From assembly GCA_000934665.2 (NCBI GenBank), contig JYFJ02001986.1, positions 45,127-65,126 of the forward strand: DNA of 20,000 nt, written 5' to 3'. Position numbers and translations under genes: made by a program. Source of the stretch: Catajapyx aquilonaris. Taxonomy: Eukaryota. The notes under the pieces were generated by a model. It was not told where the DNA came from, did no database searches, and was given only the letters and a program-made list of their open reading frames with translations. Below are positions 1 to 19,021 of the stretch, piece after piece. Within the stretch, counting starts at the first letter, position 1, and every line of letters begins with the position of its first letter.

Positions 1-91
1 AAATTTTAATAATATAGAGGGTAGAATAAGAAATTTTATGTATTAACATATTACGAGAGTGTCGACGTCATAAGAATAATGCTCTATCAAT

Positions 92-422
92 ATGGGGAGA
101 CGGAGTGGCGCCGCGGTAACGCGTGCGCTCACGGAAGTTAAGGTCCCGGGTTCAATCCCCACCCGGGGTTCCCACCTTCTTTCGTGCAGAGTTGGGCCAT
201 CTCTGGCTTCGTTTCGGGTGGGAATATCCGCTAGACTAACCCACCCGGGGGAGTTCACGAAATGACAATATAACGACATTGCACTTGCACTTCGCACATC
301 CCCTCCTAATTACCCTTGGAGCAATTAGAAATACGTATATGTATCGCTCCAAACCACAAATGGTGGTAACCCACCCCCCTAGAAATGGCCTATCGGCCAG
401 ATAACGGGGTACAGGAAAAAAA
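92..422 (+). mobile_element. Full-length tRNA-derived SINE (~330 bp) with 11-bp target-site duplication
   Basis: A-box-like TGGCGCCGCGG at 106-116 and B-box GGTTCAATCCC at 149-159 (tRNA-like spacing); short A-tail ending at 422; exact direct repeat GCTCTATCAAT at 81-91 and 423-433. Confidence 0.85.
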
Positions 423-457
423 GCTCTATCAATCACATATTAAATGGAACAACCTTT

Positions 458-655
458 GTGTACATGTAGTGGTTAAGCTTTCAGATTGCTATTTGGGAGG
501 TCCTGAGTTCGAATCCCGGTGCCAACCATCCTCACTCGGGGCTGATTTCCGTCGAATCCTATCACTTTAGGGTAGTTTTCGGTTGGTTTGCCTTACAGTT
601 ACACAATATAGCCACATGCGANCCCCCCCCCCCCCTTATGATGTCGTTCAGTAAA
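458..655 (+). mobile_element. Degenerate tRNA-derived SINE (boundaries approximate)
   Basis: A-box-like TGTAGTGGTT at 465-474 and B-box GAGTTCGAATCC at 505-516 with tRNA-like spacing; no full cloverleaf and no TSD found; includes an N and a C13 run at 622-635. Confidence 0.55.
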
Positions 656-721
656 ATTTTGTCAAATTCCTGCTCTGGTCTATGTTGCTTGGTTATGATT
701 ACTACTCATATTATCCATCAC

Positions 722-739
722 CCTATATAATTATATAGG
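722..739. repeat. Perfect 18-bp palindrome CCTATATAATTATATAGG
   Basis: Sequence equals its own reverse complement; AT-rich, low complexity. Confidence 0.9.
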
Positions 740-3188
740 AGAAGCCATAATTATCTCATATTACGTTTTTTCATATGAGCATGTACGGTGCTGCAAAGTA
801 CTTCAATAAGTTATTATTTTGTAGTTCTACCTAAGTATGTTCTACTTTGCGTGCTAGGAAGGACACTGGCAGATTGAAAGGGATTTCGTGACACAAAATA
901 CGTGCATCATCCCTCCTCCAGACGTCTTCACTCTGTAAGCAGATAATGGACATCCATTAAGACTTTATTTTCTTCTTAGAGTGGGATGGGAGGTACAAGA
1001 ATACGTACTAACCTCACCTTACTCGTATATAGAGGTTATCACCACAGAAGTTTGTCGGAATCATTATGAAACATCCTGCATTGTTGCTCACTTTTGCCGA
1101 ATATGTGTGGGTGGCAGTACAACTTGTCGGAACTTCGTCAGCCTGCGGCGCGGTGTCCAGCGGATGCCACTCAGTGTCGAGAAGCTGACGGCACTCAGTT
1201 GTTGCACACTCGTGACAAATTTGTGGTCTTCAATGAGGTACGGGATGTGATTGGGAGCATTATTCTGCCAGTATTCTCAGAAGGATGTCTAGGCTATATC
1301 ACCAGTCATCACGAATCTTGATTTAGCTGCCTGTAGAGATCCAAGGCAGACCTTTTGTACCAGAAATGCCTCGAGTAGGCTGACGACCAGGTTGCATGAA
1401 ATCGCACCATGCAATGAGGCAGAAACATACCCGTTATGTCGGCTCCTAATAGGATCGCGACCTTTTCCTTCTGTCCAATGGAGCATGCGTCTGTGCTCGA
1501 AAGCCAAAGGGCTCCTTGCCAACAAAGCCGAAAGGAAGTCCCGATTGTTGTCTCCGCTTGCCGGCAATTGAGCCCGCATCTAAGCCAAAAGTGGACTGTA
1601 TTGGTTCTCTCGAAAGCCGGTGGTCCGGGGATGATTTGGTGGCGATACGGTTTGGTCGGACGCCCACCAAAATTTTGGACCGACTGTCCCTCCATTCCCC
1701 TCCTCCCTCCTAACCCTAATAATGGATACCAGCAGCAGAGTGTGCTCTTTGTGGTCAAGACAAAGGGCTCGGAAGACTGGAAACCGTGTCCAGTTGTGGC
1801 TTCATCCGAAAAGCGGGCCAAATTTTCTCCGTCCTTTACCCCTTGCCTTGGGGAGAAGGCTGGTAGGGGTTGAGGGTGAGGGAGGATGGAGCAACCGGAG
1901 CGTGCAACAACTCGGACGACGATGTGTCCGCACCGCTGACTCAGTCAACTGCAATGTTCCGCCGGAGATTCCAAAGGGTCGGGGTCATGCTGGCAAGGAC
2001 ACTCCGGATAAGAGGAACTCGAGCAGCAAAATTATTGGCTAAACTTTTTTTCCTGAAGGGAGTCGGAATTTACGTATACTTGTAGATGGGGGTATTAGTC
2101 TCAGTCAACAAGGTGCGTTAGGGAGATCACTCTGGGAATCACAGGAATCAGGGAGAATCTAGAAAGAGTTCAGTCCGAAGTTCAGTCTGATCCTGTTCCG
2201 CTCTACATTCTCTCAAAATTTCCAAGTAGGTTAAACATTTGAACTTATACGCCAAATATATTTACAGTACCGTATATTTTCCTATCAACAATGCCAAATC
2301 TGTGCATATATTTTTCAAAATCCCAATCGGAAAATGATGTTGTAGGTGAAACATATCAGAGGGTTGTCAAGAGTCCCATTTGGTCCTCTTGTTGCGGGCA
2401 GTATGTGTCAGTATGAGCAAAGCTATTTTATCTTTGATGTGGGGTGGATTTTCCGCATTACATTTGAAATCAACAACCCTACATCGCAGGCTTTTGTACT
2501 ATTCATGACAGTTCAATATCGAAAACTCGTTATTATTGGGCAATAATAAATGCACGAACTGCAATACTGGGTCAAATTCATGCGCAAACAGGCTGATGGT
2601 TCCGGGCATATATTTATATTTACGTCAAAAATTTCAGTACTACCTGTAGGGGGCGAAAAATAATGTCCAAAAATAAATCAAAACACGATAGTTTATAATT
2701 ATCTGTAGAAGGTACATTTTCCCGATCATTTCCTAGGTCGATTATTAATTTTAAAGGGCTAAAAAGCAAAATCATTAAGAAAGGTTCAAAATACCGCAGT
2801 AAAATAATTCATTATGGAAACCTAATTAGACCTACTTATAAGACATTAGAAGCTGTACTATCGTGACGTGAAAAGTCAGTGTTACCAAATTAGGAAACAT
2901 GACGTCACTCGCCCTGTTAAATTGCATTTCATTATGTAGAGAAGAAGTTTGGCCGAACCAGAAATTGTGAAGAAGAAAATCAAGGAGAACGGATGACTTC
3001 TGATGCCTTATAAGACCGCACTAGTTAGTGCTAATGACGTCTAAAGAGGGAACACGTGGCAATTACTCCGATTATCTTGATTAGTTCACAATAGCTGGTG
3101 CGTGTTTGTAATAACTTTTCCGATGCATCCCTCCTACAGGGAACGGGAAGCAAATGGCTTTCCGGTCACGTCACCTCTCCTCTCCTTT

Positions 3189-3216
3189 CCCCACCCAACC
3201 CCCTACCCCGTTCCCC
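3189..3216 (-). other. G-quadruplex-forming motif (C-rich on + strand)
   Basis: Minus strand reads GGGG-AAC-GGGG-TA-GGGGG-TT-GGG-T-GGGG: five G-tracts with 1-3 nt loops. Confidence 0.7.
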
Positions 3217-3470
3217 TACCACCTATTCTCCTCCGCCCTCAAAATGTGATAATTTGAGCCTCCCCTGGTGATTCCTAGGCGCACTAGCAGCAGGCCTCGC
3301 TAAGCGAAACTATGCCCCCATGACTTGCATGCACACTCACTGTATACGAGCGTATCATCAGATCATCACACAGACCATACTGGTACATATCAAAGCGTAC
3401 TGTACCTACTACATACCCTATATCTAACCACAAAAATCGATATTACATAATTATATCGAATCATTGCGAT

Positions 3471-3471
<1 letters not shown>

Positions 3472-3549
<78 letters not shown>
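3472..3549. repeat. (TAA)26 microsatellite
   Basis: Uninterrupted trinucleotide repeat read directly. Confidence 0.98.
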
Positions 3550-4139
3550 GTTAATGAGTTGGCCATAACTTGTATACAGTCATAGAAGCAGACCCATTAT
3601 GTAAGTCGAGTGCGATATTTTTTAGAAGAGAATGTAGCTTTGCAGCATGCATGTGCAGGCCCAAGTTGACGGCACCAGCCCATCGGCATAATTGGATTCT
3701 TGTTTGACAACGAAATTGCAGAGGGCGCTGCAACAATGCGGGAGTTTAAGCCGAGAACAATGGGGGTCATCCGCCGCTAGTTTGGCCCTGGCCTGGAAAA
3801 TATGGCCCAGGCACTCTGGAGGCAGAGAAAGGCTAAATAACTCCAGTTCCGAAATAACAGGCGCGCCAACAGGCGTCATTTTCCATAATGCCCCCCTGCA
3901 TGAACCTTGGTCCATGGCAAATATTGTGCAATTAGAAAAGAGGGAGGGGACAGAGGGGTCTGAATTGCGAAGACTCCCCTTTTGGCCAATTGAAGCCTGT
4001 AATCATCCGTGGGGGTCGCATTATGGCATGTTTATCAGGCCAGTGTATCAGTGGCTGCAGCATAACTACCTCCGGCCTATGTTACGCAGCCTGGGTATTC
4101 CGCTCACACAATGCAGTTACGACGTCCACTGCCCCCAAC

Positions 4140-4197
4140 CGCCGCACGTGATGTACACTACAGTACCCGCTCCCGCTGTGTTTACATCAGTGCGGCG
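4140..4197. other. 58-nt stem-loop
   Basis: CGCCGCAC/GTGCGGCG, TGATGTA/TACATCA and ACAG/CTGT pair around a 12-nt loop. Confidence 0.75.
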
Positions 4198-7100
4198 CTT
4201 TTGATCTCGTTCATCAACACGACTATTAAATTGCCACTCACCTAGCTCGTATTTTTGGTATCGCTGTCTTCATGCCCGGATTTTGACGTTTATTGCCGGT
4301 GTTAAAAGTGGGGGCCAACTATTTTTGACTGGGACGAACCTGCAATTCAGTCTTCACCCAGTGTGATAAGCCATGTTATGCCAAAACTAAGGGGGTTATT
4401 ACTCAGGCACGCTTCGTCAGTTCATGTGGGGCTAATACAAATGCCAGGGGGGCTTGGCTGCGACTTCCGGTATCTGCTGAGGAGCACTTACGGCCACAAT
4501 GTCCAACAAAAGGGGTCGTAACAATCACGTACAGGCTATTCGTCCAAATCGGTTTAGTTTATCAAGTGGTCGTGTCAAGAGACCTAATATTAGCAGCTAA
4601 TATTCTTGATAGCCTCCTAAATGTAACTGTTTAAAAGTTACTTCTTAATGGTAATCAGATTAGTGCAGTGTTGCTAAGTGAAATGGAAACTACTTCAACT
4701 GACGGACCAACAGGTGAGACGGGGAAAAGTTGATGAATTATTCACCCCTGGGCTATGTAAACAAAGTCGACAGCCATATTTGCGAATTTCTCAGTTGTTG
4801 CGACCATGAGATTCTCTGGAAGAAATTATCAGTAATGGTTTGAAGGCGTGTGTTTCTCACTTAAGAAGATTTTTAAACATCAGAACCAGTGCCCTTGGCA
4901 GCCTTAATGAGTTCCGTAGCCATGAAATATGCCCAAAAGTTAAAGGAGTTTTGCTAGACCGAAATTGGTCATTATTTTTTAAAAGTGCCAAACTATCCTT
5001 CAAGTTTTATGGTGAAGTAAAGTGAACTTTGAGGTTTTCACCGAAAGGCGTATACACCTTAATAAACTGTGCGCCTCAAGAAGAAGCATAAACTCCACTT
5101 TTACGATGCAGGGAAATTTTCTTCCAGGGATTGAATCTCAAAACATACAATGGCATTGTTGATTGCTGGTAAACAAAAAATAGAAAATTTTATGCACATT
5201 AAATACAGCTTAAAATACCATTTTATACTGAAAGTTGTATGACAGTACAACATATTTTCAATGTATAATGAGGTAAGTGTATTTAAGGTACACACAGTTG
5301 AAAAGTATTTTCTGTTTATTTACAGATGTATAATGAAAGTCGTCAATTTGAGAATCGCGTTAAATATTGGTGTTCTTTATCTTCGTCCAGTGGTTATCTG
5401 CATTTCACGCACGAAGCCGATTCCAGCTTTCATTTTTAAACTTGGAAGGATTGTTGACGGTTTGCTCAAACGCTGGGGTGGCAAGTTCTCTCTGCAAATG
5501 GGAAATAAAGGGCCTGGCAATTTCCGTTTGGCGAATCCTGCTTGTGAATTCCAAAAACCCAGTTGATGGCACAATGTTCTCCCGCGGAAAACCAAGCAAC
5601 TGAAATCCTATGCTAAAAGATGTGCGCATTAGGTTTACCGGTGCGAGCTTAATTCTCGCATGGATGAAGCTTAAATCCGATTTGGACTCCATTGCGCCGA
5701 GTACAGCACAATGAGAGCGAGGTGGAATTCGAAAATAAAGGCCAGTGTATTTTCTTTTTGTGCGTCGCCGTCTCTCTACATTCTATTTTTTATCACTTTG
5801 GAATGGCGTGGAGTGAAGCAACAAAGGGGGAAGGAAAGTGGAAAAGCTGATTATTGCTTATTCCTCATCCAGTCCGGATTGGCTGAGCTGTCCGAAGTCT
5901 CGTGAGGGAAAAGCTGTAATGGTGCCTTGGTTCTTTCCAAGCGCCAAGATCAATCTCCAAGAGCATCGATTGCTGCCGAGATTCCTTCGCATGGGGGAAG
6001 GATTCCCTTCCAGCTATACGCTTCCCAAATCGGAAATAGTTTTGCTCCGCGCATAGTGCATCCCTATGATACGAGTCTTCAATATTCGAGAACGACGCCA
6101 CAAAATATATGCAGGCTTTGCGGCAGCTTACTAGAATGGTTGCAGCCATTAGTGGTGCCTCACTTACTATAATGGTTTAACATCACAGCTACTGGTTTCT
6201 CACCAGCTGGACCCCCAAAATAATCTTTGCAAGCAACTTGCGTCATTGTCATCTCCTGTCGGTTCTCGTTCCTTAGCAACGACAATGGGCTCGAAAATGG
6301 ACCCGAGTTCTATTCAGTACACGCTGCGTAATGTAAAAGAGATCAGAAGGGCACCAGTTTCCTGTAATTTAACCTCGGAAAATTTTCCCTTTCCCAGAGC
6401 AGTTTCAGGAGCCATTGATTCATGCTGTTTCGAGCATGGCCTCTTCCCTTTCCCTTGAAACATCCGGATAAAAAAAGTTAGGCCCTTTCCCCCCTCCTCT
6501 TCTCTTGACCGCTGATTCAAAAGAACAGCAAAAGGGCCCACCCCTAGGGGAAATTCAAACCGACTTTTTTCCGGGTTCGAAACGACTCCACTTTATCCCG
6601 TTTGCTCACTGAAGAAATCCAAATTTGACCTGCACTTGGCCTCTTCCTCGACGTTTCTTCATGCTATAGTATACAGACTGCAGGATTGTATCAGAGTCAC
6701 GTAGCCAGAAATGTTTCCTGGAGTGAAAGGTGGAGGGTTTGCTTGATCCAATCAGTCACACACATCCTCCAACATGTGCGGCCGGTATTGTGTTCCTTCA
6801 TCCGTATTCAATGTCCGTTCGCGAATGACTTGTCATCATCTGACCTCACAATGCAGGTCATTGGACGCATCCAGAGAAGGCTCCTGGGAAAATATTGCAA
6901 TTTACCTACGGATGGCGTCCAAGCTAATAGTAAATACGCGTTTGCTCGAATCCTTGAAAATTCTGAATGCAAATCCAAGCTTTCTAGTGTGTGGGCAGAG
7001 GATAGTAGTCTGTGCTTACTGCTGCGGTAATGTATCTGCGGCTTGCTTGGTATTCTAATATCCCCGAAACTCAAGCGGCGAGTCCATTTCGGAGGCATTA

Positions 7101-10100
7101 GTCGGAGGTCTGGCTTCCACCCTTGGCCTCCTGCTTCTGACCACATACAATGACTATAAACCCCACGGAATTACTCATAACGGCACAGCTTATACGATCC
7201 ACGTTGGTCACTCATTTTTTCTTCTTATTTTTTCCACCCTAAGCCTGCGTTCCTCCTTTTTTTTTTTGGCCCTCCTACCTCTTTTTCTCTAACACCGCGC
7301 AGATTTTATTCCTTCAGTCCGGAACTGCAGAGAGGGCACTTTCAACACCACAATGACCGGGTTGAGGAGGAATAAAAGTAGATGGGGATCAGGACTAGTG
7401 GAGTGGAAATGCAGTCCAATCCCGCGGAAGGGACCACCAGCTTCCTGGCATTTTTCAGCAAAAAATTTTATTACTGCCATACAGTCCTGATTATTTGGCA
7501 CTGATGAGGCTGCTTGTCCTATTAGACTTTTAAATGACGAACGGTATATTCTACCAATGGGAATCTTCTATCAGCCACGAAGTATCCTTCTCAGGTTGCT
7601 ACTACAGTGCACACAATATACAATAACTAATATGTACTGTACACACAGGCATTGCAATTCATATATTTATTACTAGCGACTGCTTTTGTTCCAATTGGAT
7701 ACGGGGCCTGACTGACCTGATTCTCCCAGGAGCCATACAGTATACCCTATCAAGCTAATACTCGACACAATCTGGACTTCCTCCGGTAATAACAGCTTAC
7801 AACCTCGCGATACTCAAAAAGCCTGATTATTGTTGTCGCGACAGAAAAGTAAAATAAATGTTCCCGGAATACCTGGAGATCATTTAGGGTTGGTTTTGGG
7901 AAAGAGAACGTACAATCCACTTTGCAATCCGATCCCTGGAGTGCAGCAAGGGAAAGAAGGAAATGGCTGAGTAACACAACACCAGAGCACATCGCAGTGC
8001 CAGGCACTCTGCAGTTATCCAGACACGTTGTGTGTTCGAGTAACATTGTGGAGCCCGCTGCACTCCAAGCGTGCTCTCACTGTTGAAGAGTTGAGGTTTG
8101 CCATACCGCAGATAGGTCTACTGTAGCCCACCCCCACCTTTTTTTTACGACCCTCCATAAACGAGATCGTTTCACCCGCTACCAATCTCTTGCTGCCTTC
8201 CGTGTTTTCCACGGCCACCTTTTTGTCAGTGTTTTCCCCTGCGCGGCAAAAAGGACGTAAACTCATTTTATTTTCTATCCCGGAAAAGCCTCGGAATCAA
8301 TACATTCGAATCATACGCGCCAGTTGACACTACTGTCTCAACTACACAAAACAGAATTGTCCAACATATCACCATCATTGTTGACAGATATTGTGCCCCA
8401 TCGTTTTCACTGAATCCGAGTCACCCGCAGCATAATAATGTCGCAGATGTCTACGCACTTTGAGGCGCTTCTAAGATTAGTGGCGTTCATTATCGCCATG
8501 TGCCGACCATATTTCAGACATCCCTGTTGGCGCCGAAATTAATTTGGATGGGAGGGCCAAAAGGAGCGTCGGAAAAATAGATATGGCCTGGCCGAAAAAA
8601 ATGGCCCCCTTCAACGCAGCAGACCAGTAATTATTCAGGCCAGCGGAGACCACTTGAGTAATTAATGTGCTGCCGTCGCCCATTTATAAATTTTGAGGCA
8701 GAAACTCGCGCTTTTCCATATTATGCGCGCCTTACTCCCGGATAATATTTAGCAGGGGCCCCATCCGATGAGGATCATCCCGCTCTTCCCTTTTCCTTCA
8801 GATAAAGCCAGCTCATCAACTTTTCACTTCATTCCTGCAGCGATGAATTGGCTCCAGCTTTTCCGGCCCTTTTATTTCCGCCAGCTGCAGACGCCTACCA
8901 CCCTACAAGACACCACACACTATAGGAACTATCCAGTGCCGCCATACAGAATATAATAATTATGTGAGAGGCGGCATGACGTCGCTGTTATGGTTGCATA
9001 AATATGCGGCATAACACTGTTTGCCAGTATGTCAACAGGAGGGCTTTATAAAATAACTTACACCAAGAGTTGAAAAATATTGTTAACGAGCAGGAACTTC
9101 GATGTGCTTATTTTAGTATATTAGGTTGAACTTCACTGGCCTATTATTTTCAACCATTATGCCCAGTAAATAAAGAATGCACCATGATCAGCACTAGTCA
9201 ACAACAATCAAACACGATCTAGTTTCTCAACGTACCGGTATACACTAAAATAATTTTAGAAATGTGCAACTGACGACCTAATGTACTTTACAGAATCATC
9301 TATATTTGCATACCATCCTTTTCCTGCCTTTATAAAACCTCCGGGAATGAAGCCTTCAAGTTTCATTTGACAACTCTCAGAGCTAGGGACTTGAGCTAAT
9401 CAATATTGTAATATTATGTAAATGACATAAAAGCGTCTGTGCAGCCAGCCTCAATGAAATAAACTCTCACACAGATGTACAGTACACATGAAATCATCAA
9501 ACTATCTGATACAACTATCAGGAATAATATATTTATAATATCAGCGTATGTATAGGAATGTAAAGGCAGGAGGTGGCCAAAAAGGAGGCCTGGATTAATG
9601 CTGTGTTATAGTGCCCTCCAAGCTGAAATGGGATTGAAAATACTGTAAACTGTTTGCAGCCGGAATTCAACCTATGCGCCGCCACCGACTTTTGTTTTCC
9701 ACGCACCATCAACTGTGGCATGGCGAGAATAGGCCCCATGTGAATGTGGCTTTAACATGTGGGGAAAGGGAGCAGCCATCCGAATAACCTCCAACTGTTC
9801 AGGACGGATTTTGGTGCCGTGTGTCTCGAATTTGCGGGGATGTGAATGCGACCTAAGACGGGATAAGTCCTATAGTATAAAAATGATATTTTAGTCGAGT
9901 ACGTATGTAGATCGTTAAGGGTGAAAGGTTATTAAAATATGCCGTTATTAATATTAGATTTAACTGACACCCATTACTTTAGAAGGTTGCATGGTGAGAG
10001 TCAATGAATCATACCAGGTGTAATGTGAGCCCATAAATAGAGCAATTTTAGCAGTGTGTTGTGCGCTTTCTTAGGCCAGTGTCCATTAACGAGTCACACA

Positions 10101-11920
10101 CTGTTCTCTAATCCTATTAAAAATTCACACAGCCGACTAATCCCACCCTGAATGTGAATATTTCAAAGAGGAATATAGCCATGCAACCTTCCCCACATGT
10201 GAAGGTAAGGCTTGTGAGGCACCGTAGCCTGCAGTATACGCACAGAGAGCTTGAGCCCCTAGAACAAAATCGATAGTTTGGCGGATAAATGGCACAATGT
10301 CAGTTTGTCTCCTCGACGTCCTCATCAAAGGGGGCCCTGCTGCGAGCCATACTCACGCCCATGCCCACACAGACAAAGAACTCTCTCCAACACACTTAGA
10401 TTCATCGGCAGCCTCCAGATAGAACGAGAGGGTCAACCCTCCCCGTTTCCCAAATTAACCTGCCCCTCCCTTCTACCGGCCTCGTGGAGCATATTAAGCT
10501 GACACACGGGCTGTCCGACATTTTCCGGGCGCCTGCATGCAAAAGGAGAAGGTTCTCCCGTGATAAGGCGCCCTCAGTACATTATTGCCGCCTGCCTGCG
10601 GTGACCTGTCTGCTTCCCTGCCTGCCCGACCTTATTTTTGGCTCTTATGGCCACTGTTCACGTGCGATGACTCTCATCCAACTATAGCCTTACTTAAGGG
10701 CGAATCACAACTATTGTTGAGGAGGGCTTGAAACGCTTCGGAGCATTGATTTTATAGCCTGCCAAGTATCCCTGAAGACAATGATCTAGTAATTGGCAAT
10801 CGATGATAGTAGGAGGATGAGTCCTAAAACCTACAACACAATCTAAAAGATTGTGGGGAGTTTTTTTTTGGGCTCTCTTCATTTCTGCAAATCCCATTTC
10901 TTGATCGCCCGCAATGTCTGACCCGATTAAGTCGTTTTTCGACTAGAAGGAGTCGCATTGTCGTAATCGCGTGGAGAGGTTCCCAATCATCCAATTTCAC
11001 TCCCCCCTTATCCAGAACTTATCAACATACATGGACAAAAAAAGGGGGCAGAAAACTTTCGAAAACCATTCCTACATTTCAGAAGAGAATAAATTGCAGT
11101 GTTCATTTGCCCCACTTATCAAAGAGCACGCAACACAAATGATTGAAGAGTAATGAAATGTCAATTTCGTCAACATTGGTCTTGATTATGCAGATGATAA
11201 GTGCGATGACGGACATTGTTTGGAAGTGGATCGATCGACAAGCAAATTGGGGACAGTGAGGAAGCACACTCAGAATAGCCTTGGCCCCTTTGTTGGCGGC
11301 GGAGACTTGTGTTCCATCGCTAATAAGTGGCTAATTCAGTTTGCTAATGAGTCGACGAATAATCAGCGGGGGTTTTCAACCAAGCAGTCGGGCTTTTCTC
11401 TGCAGAGGGAAAATCCTCCCATGCTGCAGGCTGCAGAGACTCCCTTCCTGAATCATGCCTTCGCATGCAAGAGCAGGAAATTATTCGACCTCCTTCTCCA
11501 AATAGAGAAAGTAGGCATATTAGTGCCAATATTCAGACTGGAAAGACCATTTATATATTTATACGTCAAATTTACAAAGGTGTTCCGTTCATTTTCACTG
11601 AAATTGCAACAAAAATTACCGTACTAGTTAATTATAAATATATGCCTCATTTATTAACTTTTACTGCTAGTCGGAAACAATGCGTGACCCATATGCGACC
11701 AAAGCGCAATCATTACTGCTGCGAACGTGGCACACGTTACTGGTACATTATCAGCTCAATTAATATTTAATTACATCACCCGACATTATAACAAATTATT
11801 AATTATTATAAACAATGAGAGTTCATCATGTAGGCATGGGTTAGGGCGTGTGGTAATGAGAGTGACCATAGTGTTCTAATTGAACGGGGTATTCAATATG
11901 GAATTATTTACTTGGGACAG

Positions 11921-12098
11921 GTTAAACAGCTTGGTACATGGACTAAGTGCCACAGGGTTCCACACAGTCAACGTCCTACTTCACTCGGCGGTCACCATAC
12001 TTTTGGCCATCCTGTGCAGGAGAGACCTCCGCTTGGGGGCACAGGTCACATGGACGGCGTGTCTTCTCTTCGCCATACATCCGGTCCACACGGAAGCC
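11921..12098 (+). CDS. TMTC1: TMTC1-like protein O-mannosyltransferase, internal exon A (178 nt, phase 2-0)
   Basis: Acceptor GACAG at 11916-11920, donor GTAAGT at 12099; encodes (R)LNSLVHGLSATGFHTVNVLLHSAVT...LLFAIHPVHTEA with the FHxxNVxLH and LFAxHPxHTEA motifs of the TMTC family. Confidence 0.93.
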
Positions 12099-13150
12099 GT
12101 AAGTACAGATTGTGACATTCAGTAATAAATTCGAGAAAGCGATGTGACAAAATATTCAGATAATTAATAACTGATAAACCGGTATATTTTCATAAATACC
12201 TAATTAACAATGTTATATGAATTATTTGAGTTTTTTTGCTCAAAATGATATAAAATAGGAGTGGATAAAGAAACTCATTAATTATTATTCGTGAAACAAA
12301 ACAAAACAAAACAAATTCGTGAAACAGAATTTGTAGCCGAATTTTTACCACTTCAGTTGAATTTTATCAAGCACACTACCTCTTGTTGTGCAGTAATACA
12401 AAAAAGGCTGATACCCACGCGAGTATTTGTTTATTCCGTACCAATATTTTCCCACTGGAAAAACTGGACCACTGACGCCCGAAAAAAAACCCTGCAGAAA
12501 TTACAGTGTTTTTTGGTGTGAAATCATTTTGCGCAGAACTTGTACAGTCCAATCCCAGGAGAACAAGTACAGTGTATGCACTTGAGAATGTGCCGTATCG
12601 GAGCACTGCAGCAGAAAAGCTCCCAAAGCCCGGCCTGTTGCAGGTTAACTAAATTCCTCTCCAACCTTCATTGCCCCAGAGCTAAATCCTCGAGGGAGAA
12701 TTCGTGCATGAAACAAACCGCATGCAACCTGACTGCCTGTTCATGTGTTCTATGGAACCTGCAACAAGTTACAAGTAGGTTCTAACTGCGTTTGCTTTTC
12801 CGGCCACTACCTCCCAGCATAAACCCAGCCACTAAAATACTATGTTATCCAACTGTTTATGACATAAGTAACGGGGGAACTACACCTTTGTTTCATAAAT
12901 GGGTGTATCATATTTTTAAACACCTTACCAAGAAAGCACACTCAGGCAACATTGCTCGCGTGACGTTGAATTCAAATCGGCGATAACGCGTTTGAATTTC
13001 CCTGCAGGTGCACGATCGATTGCTAAGATGTATTATACGGCTCACGCAGCGTTATCAAGTTTGGAGATAAAAGGAATACTTCATAGATGCTATTGTCCAA
13101 TGGTCTTGATAAAATATGAAACTTTCTTATACATGTCTTTTCTTCTGCAG

Positions 13151-13224
13151 GTAACGGGCATCGTAGGGCGGGCTGACGTTCTGGCTGCTTTGCTCTTTCT
13201 GCTTTCCTTTCTCTCTTACCTAAG
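13151..13224 (+). CDS. TMTC1: TMTC1-like internal exon B (74 nt, phase 0-2)
   Basis: Pyrimidine-rich acceptor TTTTCTTCTGCAG, donor GTAAGG at 13225; encodes VTGIVGRADVLAALLFLLSFLSYL(R), in frame with exon A. From memory of the paralogues, GRADVLAxLLFLL is closest to TMTC1. Confidence 0.93.
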
Positions 13225-13411
13225 GTAAGGATGTTCATACAGGTTTATATTGTGTAGCGTGTACCTTAGAACATGTCTTGAAATATGACTTTTCGACCCC
13301 ACTCTCATGAAGTAATAGGGCGAGTAAAAGTGCGAGGGTATATCACCCCAGCAGGCAATTTACGGTGGGGTCACTGATTAACGAGTGGGGCAGTGCACAT
13401 AGGAAGGAAAC

Positions 13412-13730
13412 TCCGTGATCACGGATCATCAATTTTCCCGGCTTCCGATTGGTTGGGACAATGTGCGGCATCGTATAAGAAGATTCAGAGGCACATGATC
13501 CCCCAAGCATGGCTGCGCTGCAATTAAAACATGGGGAGCGTGGAGAGGGGGGTCATGTAGGGATTAAAATCTGCTCTTTGCGAAAGAGGGGCAAAGTGGT
13601 CCCGGACGCCAATCGACAAATCCCGAACAAGAAGTTTATTACAGGCTGCGACCAAGTGGGACCAATTTGCCAACTTCTCGTCATTTCACGAGTTCCTGTT
13701 TTTTGTTGTTTCTTTGCCTCCCCGCGGGGA
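13412..13730. repeat. Cluster of nested inverted repeats, probable degenerate MITE/foldback element
   Basis: Palindromes TCCGTGATCACGGA (13412-13425) and TCCCCGCGGGGA (13719-13730); arms 13493-13504/13547-13558 (11/12), 13446-13452/13609-13615, and 13590-13603/13658-13671 (13/14). Confidence 0.55.
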
Positions 13731-13928
13731 AGCTCCCGTAATGAGGTCCTCTATGCTGCACAGATTTTGCAATGACAAAATTTTAAATCATACAACTTCC
13801 GACCAAGTTTAAGCCACATTTAAAAACAGCCAGTAATTAAATCGCATACTAATTGCAAAAAATGAATGTGGATAAGCTATCCGTTGCAGATACGCTGTAA
13901 GGCAGTATGTTGCAATTTTATTCAATTG

Positions 13929-14013
13929 TATGGCGGTCTGCCACCCCCCTATAACGACCAAGTGTTGTATCACGGGGTAAATACAATAAAATAAAAATAA
14001 AATATATAAAATA
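13929..14013 (+). mobile_element. 5'-truncated SINE/LINE 3' tail with 9-bp target-site duplication
   Basis: ATTCAATTG at 13920-13928 and 14014-14022; A-rich (TAAAA)n tail; body resembles the 3' end of the SINE at 92-422. Confidence 0.7.
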
Positions 14014-14124
14014 ATTCAATTGCAGCGTTAAAATAAATATTTAAATTGATGCAAATGGTACCTTGTGGAATATACAGTACTGTACATACTTAACAGTATT
14101 CACCTTGTATACTTTTTGCTTCAG

Positions 14125-14145
14125 GTCTGCACTAACTTACACTAA
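14125..14145 (+). CDS. TMTC1: Candidate 21-nt alternative microexon of the TMTC1-like gene (adds SALTYTK)
   Basis: Acceptor TACTTTTTGCTTCAG, donor GTGAGA, phase 2-2 matching the host intron, no stop; branch-point-like CTTAAC at 14089-14094. Confidence 0.55.
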   Translation, partial: VCTNLH

Positions 14146-14311
14146 GTGAGAAATATATTTGCATTTTACTGTACTCCTTACAGTGGGTCAGTGGCCACTG
14201 TGTATAGCTAAGAGCGACTGTGAGTTGTTACTCCCCTAAATGCACATGACTGCATGTAGCTTACTGTGAAACATTTTGGGTATTTTCCACTTTTCTGACT
14301 GATCCAGACAC

Positions 14312-14640
14312 TTAGCTTGGGGAAATGGTCGATTTGGAACAACAGCCTTTATCTGGGTGTGGTTCGAGTCGCTCAGCTAATTTAACGGCCGCAATAAAAT
14401 AAGCAAGTGAGATTGGAGACAGCCAGGCAACTTCTCACTCCTTCAGCCAGTCGTATGGTTAAATCCAACCAATCCGGTGCATTTCCGGAACAGCTGTATG
14501 ACATTATTGCTCAGGAGCCACAATAAAATGATAACGAGGCACGGCATCATGGATTTACCTCTCTCTTCAGCTCGAATGACGTAGGAGTTGGAAATAAACC
14601 AGTTACTCCCCAGTGGCTGCCCTCATTCGCATTTATCCTT
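14312..14640 (+). mobile_element. Possible old tRNA-derived SINE (3' boundary uncertain)
   Basis: A-box-like TGGGGAAATGG at 14318-14328 and B-box GGTTCGAGTC at 14361-14370, the same 43-nt start-to-start spacing as in the SINE at 92-422; no TSD seen. Confidence 0.4.
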
Positions 14641-15551
14641 AATAATTGCGTTCTTAAGAAGGATACTTCAGGCCTACTGCAATTGAATCTATCTTTCGCT
14701 CAACTTTAATTTTATATTTTTAAATGCTCAGCTACTTGATAGAATGTTCTCTAATGATGTAAATTACTCATATTAGAAAGCATTTGCTCGAATTTTGTGA
14801 ATATGCGATATGCTTACGCTTGGTTGACATTAAAGATCTCGCAACTCCGGGTCAGGAGGATTGGGCCACAATTTACAAAATTTATATCAAAATTACAGGA
14901 CCAGAATACGCCTCGGGGTCAGCCGGGACGGATAAAGGAGACTCTAATAAACACATCCTTTAACATAATCGCTCTTGACCTGTCACGTGCACGCATCAAA
15001 AATCTCCATTATTGTGCAGCCATTGCTCTTGATATCTGGTGAATAGCAGCAATGCTCTATGGTTGTCGGAGGAAGATACCAGTGTTTAACATGGATTCAA
15101 GTCACGACCAAGTATTATACTTCCCATTTGACATGACAGTGGCTGTTCTTATGCTGCTATTATCTGGGTCAAAGGAAGTGCGTCAATATTAGAGAGTTAC
15201 GACTAAGGGAAAGATACGCCTGAACTCTCATACGCTATTATATTGTATAGCCAATTTTGTGGCTTTGACTGAATAGTCGATATCTGTGGAAGGCGGATTT
15301 TCTACTGTGATATACCTAGGATTGTCTATTTTTAAATTCATAATGAGTTTTGGCCTGATGTGGGCTAACAAATAATAGAAAATTATAGCATTAAGTATAA
15401 TTACACCATATGCAGAAGCATTCTGCTTCCTGAATATGCTTTCACTGTAGAGTAATTATCCCAACTGAAATGGTTGTAATATAATTAACTAACACTATGT
15501 CAGAACTCTGAAATTTTAAAACAATAATCTAATATTCTGTAACATAATAAT

Positions 15552-15775
15552 ATTGTATTAGGTTACCCCGGGATAGGCCTGTGACCGTTTTAATGCCTGC
15601 ATTAATTCACTGACTGTACTTTTTACTGATTTTGACTGTGGGAGAATCACGAGAGAACTCATGGAAACTCTGCATGAGAAATTCCTCTACCCAATCCGGA
15701 GATAGAACTCGGGATCTAAGTGACCTCAGAGGAAGAAGGCTGTGGTGCTAGCCACTGTACCTTTATGGCCGTCCC
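15552..15775 (-). mobile_element. tRNA-derived SINE (~224 bp), antisense to the host gene
   Basis: Minus strand starts GGGACGGCC; A-box-like GGTACAGTGG (15752-15761), degenerate B-box GAGTTCTATCTCC (15698-15710); flanked by ATAATAAT at 15544-15551 and 15776-15783 (low-complexity TSD). Confidence 0.7.
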
Positions 15776-15880
15776 ATAATAATCCAATACAAAATAATTA
15801 ACGTATTATAAAAAATGTGAACAAAAACTACCGTAGTTGTTGCAATCGTGTTGTAACGGTCTGCTTACACAACCGCATCT

Positions 15881-15955
15881 TTTTATCCACGCGCGCTTTA
15901 GAAGCACCTTCGCTGCTAGCATAAAAGGGAGCTTCTAAAGCTTGCGTGGGAAAAA
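15881..15955. other. 75-nt stem-loop
   Basis: CCACGC-NN-GCTTTAGAAGC (15887-15905) pairs with GCTTCTAAAGC-NN-GCGTGG (15931-15949), 17/19, extended by TTTT/AAAA outside and CCTT/AAGG inside. Confidence 0.8.
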
Positions 15956-17069
15956 CAAACAAACAATAAGAGAGTGTAGTCTTGTACCACCATTTCTGTT
16001 CTCTTTTCCTCTACAAGGAAAAGCTTCACGCAGCAGGCAATATCACCATCAAAGTAGGATAGAATACACGAAGAAAGAAAAGAAATATAACAAGCTTCCG
16101 AACATAATGAGGTTGTCACTTTGCCGACGACAGGTACGTCACGAATTCGTGAGAGGTATGGAAAGAGGCCTAGTAACGTAGTCATATCGTTTCCCACCTC
16201 GTCCGCCATCTGACGTCCCCTATTATGCGATATGACAAGTGTCGATAAGATAAGCCCCGTATCTTTTTCTGTGGGGGCATAAATAATTTATGAATTCATT
16301 TACGACGAAAAAGAGGAGGAATGGTCTGCACCGAATAATCTCACGCATGTTATAACGTTCCGTGCTAAAGGAAAACCCCACCAAAATATTTAAGTTACGT
16401 GTACTATGATATGTAACCGTGAAATTGTCGTGCGTATCAAAATATCTGATAACATTTGCGATAGGGTGAGGGAGTGGGTGCGTGTGGGACAGGATTCGAC
16501 TCTTACTTTGCCCAGAGGCTTCAACGTGGAAGCCTAAGAAGATCAGTTTCCTCAGAGCCTCAGTCTTGGGACCAATCATTCAACTCGATAGCTACTTCTT
16601 TCAAAACAGTATCTTCTTCTTGACTGAGTACAATCCGCTTCTCTCCTCTCAAAAGGGATTTGAAGTATCCGCATTCAATTTAGGTCCCAGTTCATTATTA
16701 TCACGTGACAGATTCTATCCCAAATTTCTCATGGACTCTTCGATTTCAAATCAACTGAAGCCAAGCGACATTACTTTAACCAATGCCTGAATTCCTAACC
16801 AAACAAAGGAAATATTTTACTCTGTATGTAGGGTCCGTTAGACTGTATGGACAGATTTCACTGTATCAGTCACTAGTAATAAGATGTGTCAGCCATTTTG
16901 ACATTTTTGAAATATATTATATATAAAAAAGAAAAAGAAAACCATTTTTGTTGAATACGTTGAGTGTAATGTAGGAAAGTTGAGGTGGAAGTTTCATAAG
17001 TGAAATTTCTTTTTCTCTTTGTCACTGCAGGAGTGCCTGCTGCTTTAGACATAAATAAACGTTGAATTT

Positions 17070-17146
17070 TATTTTGGCACTTTTTTTCGCCTCTGCAAGC
17101 AATAAATAATTTATTGCTTGAAGAGGAGAAAAAAAGGGCCAAAATA
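17070..17146. repeat. 77-bp near-perfect palindrome
   Basis: Arms 17070-17107 and 17109-17146 are reverse complements at 35/38 positions with a 1-nt spacer. Confidence 0.92.
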
Positions 17147-17342
17147 CTGGCAAAATAATCTGATTTGGTCTCGTGATACCTGAAAGTGCAAGAATAAAAA
17201 TGAAAAATATATTGCATTGGGTAGACCGGGAATCATCAAAAGTCTTAATTCGTTTGTAATCACCACCAGTGAGTTTTCTCTCTATAGGAGACTGTAATAT
17301 CTCTACCAGATATCTGACTTGGCCAGTAGAAAGCACCATATC

Positions 17343-17407
17343 GCTCAAAAAGATTGAGATGATATTAAAATTTGGTTCAGTGCAAAATCGTCTCAATATT
17401 TTTGAGC
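17343..17407. repeat. Inverted repeat with 21-bp arms
   Basis: GCTCAAAAAGATTGAGATGAT (17343-17363) vs ATCGTCTCAATATTTTTGAGC (17387-17407), 19/21, 23-nt spacer. Confidence 0.85.
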
Positions 17408-17600
17408 AAGGTAGGACCTTTTGAGAACTAAATTAATCAATGCCAAACTAAATTTTGACCCAAATGTGATTATGATCGTTATGCATTTCAGGTATTTAGA
17501 GTTTGCGTCCGAATCACTAGCAGCAGCCTTAATATACGATATTTTATAATGTAGTTTAAATAATTATATGACATTATAAGGGCCTCGGATCTCTTGACAG

Positions 17601-17822
17601 GTGCCTGGAAAAATGGTGGTGTCCAGAGAAGTCCAGGTCATCCCCACTCTCGGTAATGTCGTCCGTGTTAGACGACCCCGAAGGCTGGTGGGTTTGCCTG
17701 AAGCGCCTGTGGCCATCTCTTCTCCTGGCCACAGCTTCGATGCTGGCCAAGGAGCACGGAATCACCGTCCTGGGAGTCAATGCTCTCTGGGACATGACCA
17801 CTTCTGCAAGCCTGCTCCGGAG
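17601..17822 (+). CDS. TMTC1: TMTC1-like internal exon C (222 nt, phase 2-2)
   Basis: Acceptor CTCTTGACAG, donor GTGAGA at 17823; encodes CLEKWW...LWPSLLLATASMLAKEHGITVLGVNALWDMTTSASLLR(R) containing the conserved MLxKExGITV motif. This frame is not in the ORF track. Confidence 0.92.
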
Positions 17823-17974
17823 GTGAGATCCGAGTCTCGCTATTCTCCGTCACCCTACCTCCAAATTCGAATAAGCTGGAATAACAACATTTCCTCACTC
17901 TCCGACTCGGCTCATTACCACATCCCCAACTCAACTATTTCTCCATCTCCTATTAACACAGATCCTTGCCGCAG

Positions 17975-17986
17975 GCACAACTATCA
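17975..17986 (+). CDS. TMTC1: Candidate 12-nt alternative microexon of the TMTC1-like gene (adds HNYQ)
   Basis: Acceptor TCCTTGCCGCAG, consensus donor GTAAGT at 17987, phase 2-2, no stop; upstream CT-rich AG-free zone 17876-17959 and branch-point-like ATTAAC at 17952-17957. Confidence 0.55.
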
Positions 17987-18417
17987 GTAAGTGAAAGATA
18001 ATTCGGCAGAGGCACTGAGGCAGGCGAGCTACTGCACTATTCATGTCGACACTGACTGTTCTGCCTTCAGCCCTCCGAATTCACTGGGACTACTGAACTT
18101 TCTAGGGAGGTGGTACTTGCTAAGCCAGAACAAATAAGGGCAGTCAGTGTAAATATTACACAAAAGTTCAAAGTAACACTGTAGGCCCAACGCATGGGAA
18201 ATAGGTGGTGGTCTTATCCATTTAAAGGGCAGTAACCTCTGGAAGAAACATTCTGTGACTGTTGCTTTCCTGGTCATTGTAACTATTTCACCTACAGTAG
18301 GCCAAGCAGTAGGCCTACTCAGTGCACCAACTGGCATATTTATTTATTCACTAATGAAGGATGTAACTAGCCGTTATTTTTATTTTATTTTCACAATCTC
18401 TCTTTCAATCGTTCCAG

Positions 18418-18490
18418 GGCTCTGGAAAGCAAGAAGATTGACTCAGCCACTTCTCAGTTATTGAAAAGAATCGTCATTCTCGGCCTTACC
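18418..18490 (+). CDS. TMTC1: TMTC1-like internal exon D (73 nt, phase 2-0)
   Basis: Long pyrimidine tract ending GTTCCAG, donor GTAAGT at 18491; in frame with exon C, encodes ALESKKIDSATSQLLKRIVILGLT (loop leading into the next hydrophobic helix). Confidence 0.85.
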
Positions 18491-19021
18491 GTAAGTATAT
18501 TTTGACTTTTTTTTCCTCCGTAACATTCAGTTTGTAAGCCTTCTCTGGGCCACTAATTGGAGAGAGGCGGGAAGCAGAGTTGGGCTTGCGAGAGGAGGGA
18601 AGGGGGATTCTCGGGCCAAAATGGCACCGTAATGATGGAGTTTCGCCGAAAACAGCAGTGAGAGCGGTTTCCTTGGAATTGCTTCTAGGCATTCGTCAAG
18701 GTTAGATTTTGACATACAGTATTAGTACCGATTAGTTTCATTCCAGCTTAATGACACTAACTCTCGGAATTTGTCATATTTGTGTAAGAATAACTTTCAT
18801 AACTGCTATTTATACAGGCTGAATTCGCAACACACTCCTCGCGCTACTTTCCAACAATAAAGCTGCTTTACACTAACTCTTATGTAGAAGGATACGTCAA
18901 AGGATCCTGCCAATAATGGGTCTTGCTTTCGATTCCAGTCAATTTAGTGAAGTTAGTTGATAATAATATGCTACAAATCCGCTCAGGAACTTGTGATTTT
19001 GGGGGCAACATTTGGAGGAGC

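Follow-up and report, generated by a model that had tools for sequence, protein, structure and literature searches.

An intron of a TMTC1-like gene in Catajapyx aquilonaris contains a 21-nt segment flanked by splice-site-like sequence, and the question raised by this locus is whether the segment is an exon, and if so of what kind, or an accident of intronic sequence. A preliminary description of the window (the whole 20,000-nt stretch of DNA analyzed here) had read it as a tissue-regulated neural microexon. The observation behind that reading is right: the segment lies exactly where it had been placed, is stop-free and phase 2-2, and sits in a phase-2 intron of 4376 nt (13225-17600); translation of the spliced frame indicates that inclusion keeps the frame and adds seven residues (SALTYTK) with no stop; and the short motifs invoked (TGC at 14117-14119, i.e., positions -8 to -6; ACTAAC at 14131-14136; TGCATG at 14251-14256; GTGAGA from 14146) are all present at the positions claimed for them. 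The neural, tissue-regulated interpretation is a candidate reading that the sequence leaves open, and the evidence set out below favors, with modest confidence, an inert pseudo-exon. The features concerned are collected in the table.

Table. Coding exons, candidate segments, and splicing-related motifs in the window, in positional order
Feature	Position	Strand	Basis
TMTC1-like coding exon, TM2-TM3 region, ends at HTEA	11921-12098	+	tblastn E 6.5e-16 (P0161), acceptor and GTAAGT donor, phmmer matches
Upstream flanking exon, 74 nt, phase 2 end, GRAD motif and TM4	13151-13224	+	homologues, splice sites
Putative branch point TTAAC, of yUnAy type and not CUAAY, putative branch A at -32	14090-14094	+	presumed function
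Polypyrimidine tract, 11/15 pyrimidines, with UGC (14117-14119) and CAG acceptor (AG 14123-14124)	14107-14124	+	sequence
Candidate frame-keeping microexon, 21 nt, SALTYTK, ACTAAC inside	14125-14145	+	sequence and simulations
Candidate donor GTGAGA, 5/9 U1 matches	14146-14151	+	sequence
Candidate exon-like string, 36 nt, CAG acceptor, GTGAGT donor, in-frame stop (poison-type)	14184-14219	+	sequence
UGCAUG, Rbfox-type motif, 105 nt 3' of the candidate donor and 31 nt 3' of the second donor (GTGAGT)	14251-14256	+	sequence
Downstream flanking exon, 222 nt, long TM4-TM5 linker, TM5, KEHG motif	17601-17822	+	spliced frame, tblastn
Probable next coding exon, 73 nt	18418-18490	+	open frame, AG/GTAAGT sites; own homologue similarity weak

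The host gene and the frame logic of the preliminary description both hold. The four coding exons join into one open frame and, like TMTC1, an O-mannosyltransferase of GT-C fold with TPRs, encode TM2-TM6-type sequence with the GT-C membrane motifs HPxHTEA, GRAD (D169), and KExG (K219), the GRAD aspartate of the upstream flanking exon being the equivalent of human D169. The best BLAST match is homologue P0161 (47% identity across 179 residues). The exon at 11922, used as query, retrieved 898 proteins at E up to 0.001, among which the top spliced-frame matches are proteins named TMTC1 from a sea cucumber, a millipede, and a brine shrimp, and two profile searches returned mostly TMTC1 proteins among the best 120 of 2592 and the best 120 of 1186 matches. 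In a tree of 35 rows, to none of which the window sequence is more than 52% identical, it falls outside the supported TMTC2 and TMTC3 groups as well as outside the winged-insect and springtail TMTC1 groups, and joins most TMTC1 rows and the single TMTC4 row in a 94/86 group graded as weakly supported. On this sequence evidence the name TMTC1-like is fair, not proven. Unlike human and other vertebrate TMTC1, the window sequence has a TM4-TM5 linker that is 16 residues longer than the usual vertebrate spacing.

The window holds only part of the gene, and among the tblastn matches listed for its 20 kb there is no exon with DD, SHKSYRP, DUF1736, or the C-terminal TPR array. Since no upstream TMTC exon (DD/SHKSYRP) is among the matches listed in 1-11900, the intron before 11921 is probably longer than 11.9 kb. 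Several stop-free frames of 100-210 codons occur in that same region (e.g., 1309-1944 minus, 3692-4204 plus). Three single-exon frames matched 0 Pfam families; a PDB search with a full-length homologue gave matches that all lie in the TPR part among the best 60 of 113, and weak adenosylhomocysteinase matches of one exon were rejected as chance. A single ESM Atlas match at 0.80 is a lead only. An alternative in-frame acceptor at 17637, which would shorten the linker by 12 residues, is unlikely (6/15 pyrimidines, with an AG 3 nt upstream).

Around the candidate itself, an AG at 14095-14096 directly follows the putative branch point and leaves a 26-nt AG-free zone before the acceptor. Use of the segment would split the host intron into introns of 900 and 3455 nt, and unspliced read-through of the GTGAGA donor meets a stop at once. 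The possibility, raised earlier, that the segment belongs to a multicopy repeat finds no support within the 20-kb window, where a repeat search recovered no further copies of the locus. The predicted RNA fold of 14060-14270 is nothing unusual (z -0.37).

How often such a string would arise by chance is central to its interpretation. The intron contains 60 frame-keeping YAG..GTR strings of up to 51 nt, 39 of them stop-free, and the candidate alone among these passes the strict filter; when the UGC is added, it is the sole string to pass on either strand of the 20-kb window (40 kb in all). In 3000 third-order Markov copies of the intron, examined with four nested filters, an equally good string appeared in 457 runs (15%) for splice sites and frame, in 130 (4%) once the UGC was added, and in 62 (2%) with a yUnAy branch point as well; another simulation of the intron gave similar rates. 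Adding a UGCAUG within 150 nt, a criterion chosen post hoc, leaves 2 of 3000 runs, a figure that overstates the case because the candidate was already known when the thresholds were chosen. Exon-like pairs of up to 250 nt are as numerous in the sense orientation of the intron as in the antisense (8 each). The candidate is somewhat above chance for one intron, which is too little for it to stand alone in a genome-wide scan. The prior expectation is that fewer than about 1% of such introns contain a real exon this short, and with so low a prior, and with only a fraction of real exons passing all of the filters, the odds of a real exon stay below even. The chance rates (2-15% per 4.4-kb intron) are a caution for similar calls elsewhere.

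Comparison with homologues likewise bears on whether the segment is used. No SALTYTK-like motif was found in 386 proteins. In a cluster set of 141 members in 23 clusters (the large clusters represented by 15 of 45 and 15 of 26 members), no same-species isoform pair has a multi-residue insert at the site among the 111 listed members that cover it. The only differing pair among the listed members is Branchiostoma lanceolatum TMTC1-like X1/X2 (P0188/P0390), with a one-residue difference exactly at the junction, a hint that amphioxus has tandem splice sites and an intron placed as here. The skip form scores as well as the inclusion form, or slightly better, in most BLAST comparisons with homologues. 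Directly after the junction, 112 of 153 distinct homologous sequences have S and 14 have C, so that the skip and inclusion forms both fit. Homologues also tolerate long insertions in the TM4-TM5 linker. The missing insert in orthologues says little, since all are at most 52% identical to the window sequence and roughly one in two neural exon orthogroups occurs in a single species (10.64898/2026.09.05.749416), a preprint in whose main text TMTC is not mentioned. No close relative was recovered: searches with the downstream exon (17602-17820) yielded 53 candidates among longer proteins, none at E up to 0.001, and 597 pattern matches in metagenome contigs, none of them confirmed; the exact 24-nt acceptor-plus-exon pattern had 0 matches in metagenome contigs. 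A search of sequencing runs with 11900-18520 listed no RNA run, which weighs neither way, that stretch probably being too long a query. As separate observations on this protein family, the linker of the window (17601-17700) is unusually long and carries two Trp-Trp pairs near cysteines; long insertions are present in the TM4-TM5 linker of the TMTC1-like proteins P0274, P0283, and P0321 (spiny lobster, Elysia, and Biomphalaria); and two models may be gene-model artefacts, namely Branchiostoma belcheri P0280, which repeats the TM2-TM4 block, and Orchesella P0183, which ends in CCHC zinc knuckles.

Published exon tables and the literature were surveyed for microexons in this family. CG31690 is taken here to be fly Tmtc1. 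In the supplement tables of one study, CG31690 appears with exons of 69, 1418, and 481 nt only, in background groups, and once in the expression table, while mouse Tmtc1 and Tmtc4 appear in the same tables with 138- and 410-nt exons (PMC8797185). A literature search found no TMTC-family microexon described in titles or the opening lines of abstracts, and exon tables in further preprints and supplements could bear on the point; one paper has a single mention each of microexon and TMTC1 (PMC6451108).

The reading best supported by these results is that the segment is an inert pseudo-exon: a fair acceptor and a weak donor brought together by chance in the 4.4-kb intron of this TMTC1-like O-mannosyltransferase gene. 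A segment of 21 nt would be too short for ordinary exon definition, and 13224 would presumably be joined directly to 17601 in all tissues, leaving an ordinary intronic look-alike. This reading is favored by the frequency of look-alikes in simulated introns and the strand symmetry of exon-like pairs, by a skip form that needs no insert, by isoform pairs that lack one, and by a motif set that shows the hallmarks of known microexons only in part (see below). The exon sizes given for CG31690 in the fly tables (PMC8797185) point the same way. So does the low prior for exons of this size. Against it stand the candidate's being the sole UGC-filter string in 40 kb, the rarity of the full motif set in the simulations, and a second exon-like string nearby, together with an acceptor as pyrimidine-rich as those of real exons, the tolerance of homologues for linker insertions, and the distance of all orthologues examined, which makes the missing insert weak evidence.

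A possible but doubtful reading is that the segment is a real, lineage-restricted cassette microexon that would be skipped by default and included in one tissue. About two thirds of the weight given to it falls on a variant in which inclusion in neurons would be promoted from the UGC by a Srrm234 that has the eMIC domain and from the UGCAUG by Rbfox; the alternative is Rbfox/How control in muscle. The frame-keeping length, the good acceptor, the weak donor, and the joint occurrence of the motifs argue for it, as does the cytosolic and length-variable TM4-TM5 connection (PMC7801869), at whose junction either S or C fits. Like eMIC and SRRM3/4 microexons, the candidate is shorter than 27 nt (the 3-27 nt class), a multiple of three, stop-free, and has a UGC between putative branch point and AG, an interval in which UGC marks 74-79% of SRRM3/4 microexons but is not strictly required (10.1101/2024.09.17.613571). 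The lack of the peptide and of insert-bearing isoforms among the proteins surveyed weighs against it, and so does closer comparison with the fly code.

Fly eMIC exons combine a very weak 3' region with a long AG exclusion zone, a UGC close to the AG, a UCUC-rich tract, and a CUAAY branch point; their donors are weak, and the introns on either side are short (PMC8797185). The eMIC-type marking proposed for the segment survives in part: the UGC at -8 and the weak donor (5/9 U1 matches versus 7/9 at the upstream exon) agree with this code, but a long AG-free zone, UCUC, and CUAAY are all missing. The 26-nt AG-free zone is within the range of the gene's four other exons (18-62 nt), and the acceptor is not weak, its 11/15 pyrimidines comparing with 8-12 at the other exons by the rough test of pyrimidine counts. 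No CTAAY is present in the 60 nt upstream of the candidate, where the branch point is a yUnAy match only, and no UCUC in the upstream stretch inspected; the flanking introns, at 900 and 3455 nt, are unlike the short ones of fly eMIC exons. As a microexon mark the UGC is present but discriminates weakly, since among the 205 strong-looking acceptors of the window 62 carry one at -15 to -5, and the neighboring constitutive exon has one at -5. In all, 6.6% of positions have a UGCAUG within 150 nt and 0.9% have an ACUAAY within a 21-nt span, and the motifs were picked post hoc. QKI elements often consist of two parts, one of them a UAAY half-site (PMC12064062), and no such half-site is found within 20 nt of the candidate's ACTAAC. 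The candidate resembles the muscle microexon of Snap23, which QKI and RBFOX2 together drive from downstream sites, in being a small in-frame segment whose donor is weak and which has (U)GCAUG downstream and ACUAA(C) nearby; it differs in that the Snap23 QKI motifs are downstream, activating, and tested for binding and splicing, whereas the candidate has a single ACUAAC inside it, known from sequence alone (PMC12064062). Since a muscle microexon is under the control of QKI and RBFOX2, the motifs are no specific sign of neuronal use, and the earlier motif reading, while correct as to their presence, is weaker than it was presented.

If the segment were included as a cassette, its seven residues would probably sit in the membrane domain of the enzyme on the side away from catalysis. 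In human TMTC1, D169 lies before TM4 in lumenal loop EL2 and K219 after TM5 in lumenal EL3 (PMC7801869; numbering checked on P0245), and since both are in lumenal loops, the stretch joining TM4 to TM5 is on the cytosolic side, across the membrane from the catalytic face. The insert had been described as lying in a loop. Its placement, taken from the AlphaFold model of the homologue P0161 (mean pLDDT 91.9; helix 132-157, junction after R150), argues against this and would put the insertion within the end of the TM4 helix, 7 residues before the helix ends. On this model the insert would make TM4 longer at its cytosolic end, remote from the lumenal active site; little change of register is expected, as seven residues are about two helical turns, and an effect on partners, localization, or stability is likelier than one on catalysis because the insert would be cytosolic. 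Were this cassette real, it would be another microexon of a well-known class, in a family for which the titles and abstract openings searched describe none; it would tie cadherin O-mannosylation to splicing that differs among tissues and would be a case of an exon born within one arthropod-like lineage that has been poorly sampled.

The second exon-like string, which begins 38 nt after the candidate, introduces the unlikely reading of a poison cassette. The 14125 acceptor can also be paired with the GTGAGT donor at 14220 to give a 95-nt exon (14125-14219), also with a stop, and this form or the 36-nt string would end the protein right after TM4 and lead to nonsense-mediated decay, the 21-nt form being a minor alternative-donor product. 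In its favor, each of the two forms is bounded by GT-AG sites and contains an in-frame stop, a length of 95 nt is usual for an exon, the UGCAUG lies 31 nt past the GTGAGT donor, and the branch-point-like ACTAAC precedes the 14184 acceptor by 49 nt. Of 3000 simulated introns, 21 produced a frame-keeping candidate accompanied by another cassette within 120 nt. Against this reading, exon-like pairs of such size are common and strand-symmetric in the intron, two AGs intervene between ACTAAC and 14184, and the sites of the second string lie in an ACAGT/ACTGT-rich, partly self-complementary patch: ACTGT occurs five times in 14060-14270 (0.63 expected from the intron average), perfect 12-bp palindromes stand at 14073-14084 and 14189-14200, and in the predicted fold the acceptor and donor of the string can base-pair. 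Either regulation of the island or this sequence bias could account for the two-cassette patch.

Less probable again is a lineage-specific TMTC1 switch, in which the 14125 acceptor would feed either the 21-nt donor (lengthening TM4 by two turns) or the 95-nt donor (truncating the protein), with the 36-nt poison exon nearby. That exon, only 38 nt away, would probably not be spliced together with the 21-nt form, and the splicing factors of a tissue would decide whether the cadherin O-mannosyltransferase is modified or silenced. Finally, a constitutive tiny exon, always included and missed by gene models, is very improbable: its acceptor matches constitutive ones in strength and its first residue, S, is the commonest after the junction, but the donor is weak, the skip form does as well or better in most BLAST comparisons, and the segment does not supply a missing constitutive piece because the GRAD-to-KExG spacing of the skip form (65 residues) is already beyond the 36-60 residues seen in 314 of the 317 homologues with the motif pair.

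A few minor features of the gene were also observed. At 13215-13229 the donor of the upstream exon falls in an inverted repeat (6-bp arms, 3-nt loop), which could mask the donor and is probably a codon by-product. At 18531-18533 (+), 40 nt past the 18490 donor, a 3-nt string (AG-TTT-GTAAGC) passes the splice-site filter, probably by chance. The host intron also carries inverted repeats at 17070-17146 (38-nt arms, 92%) and 15881-15955 (28-nt arms, 82%), which are possibly MITE-like remnants.
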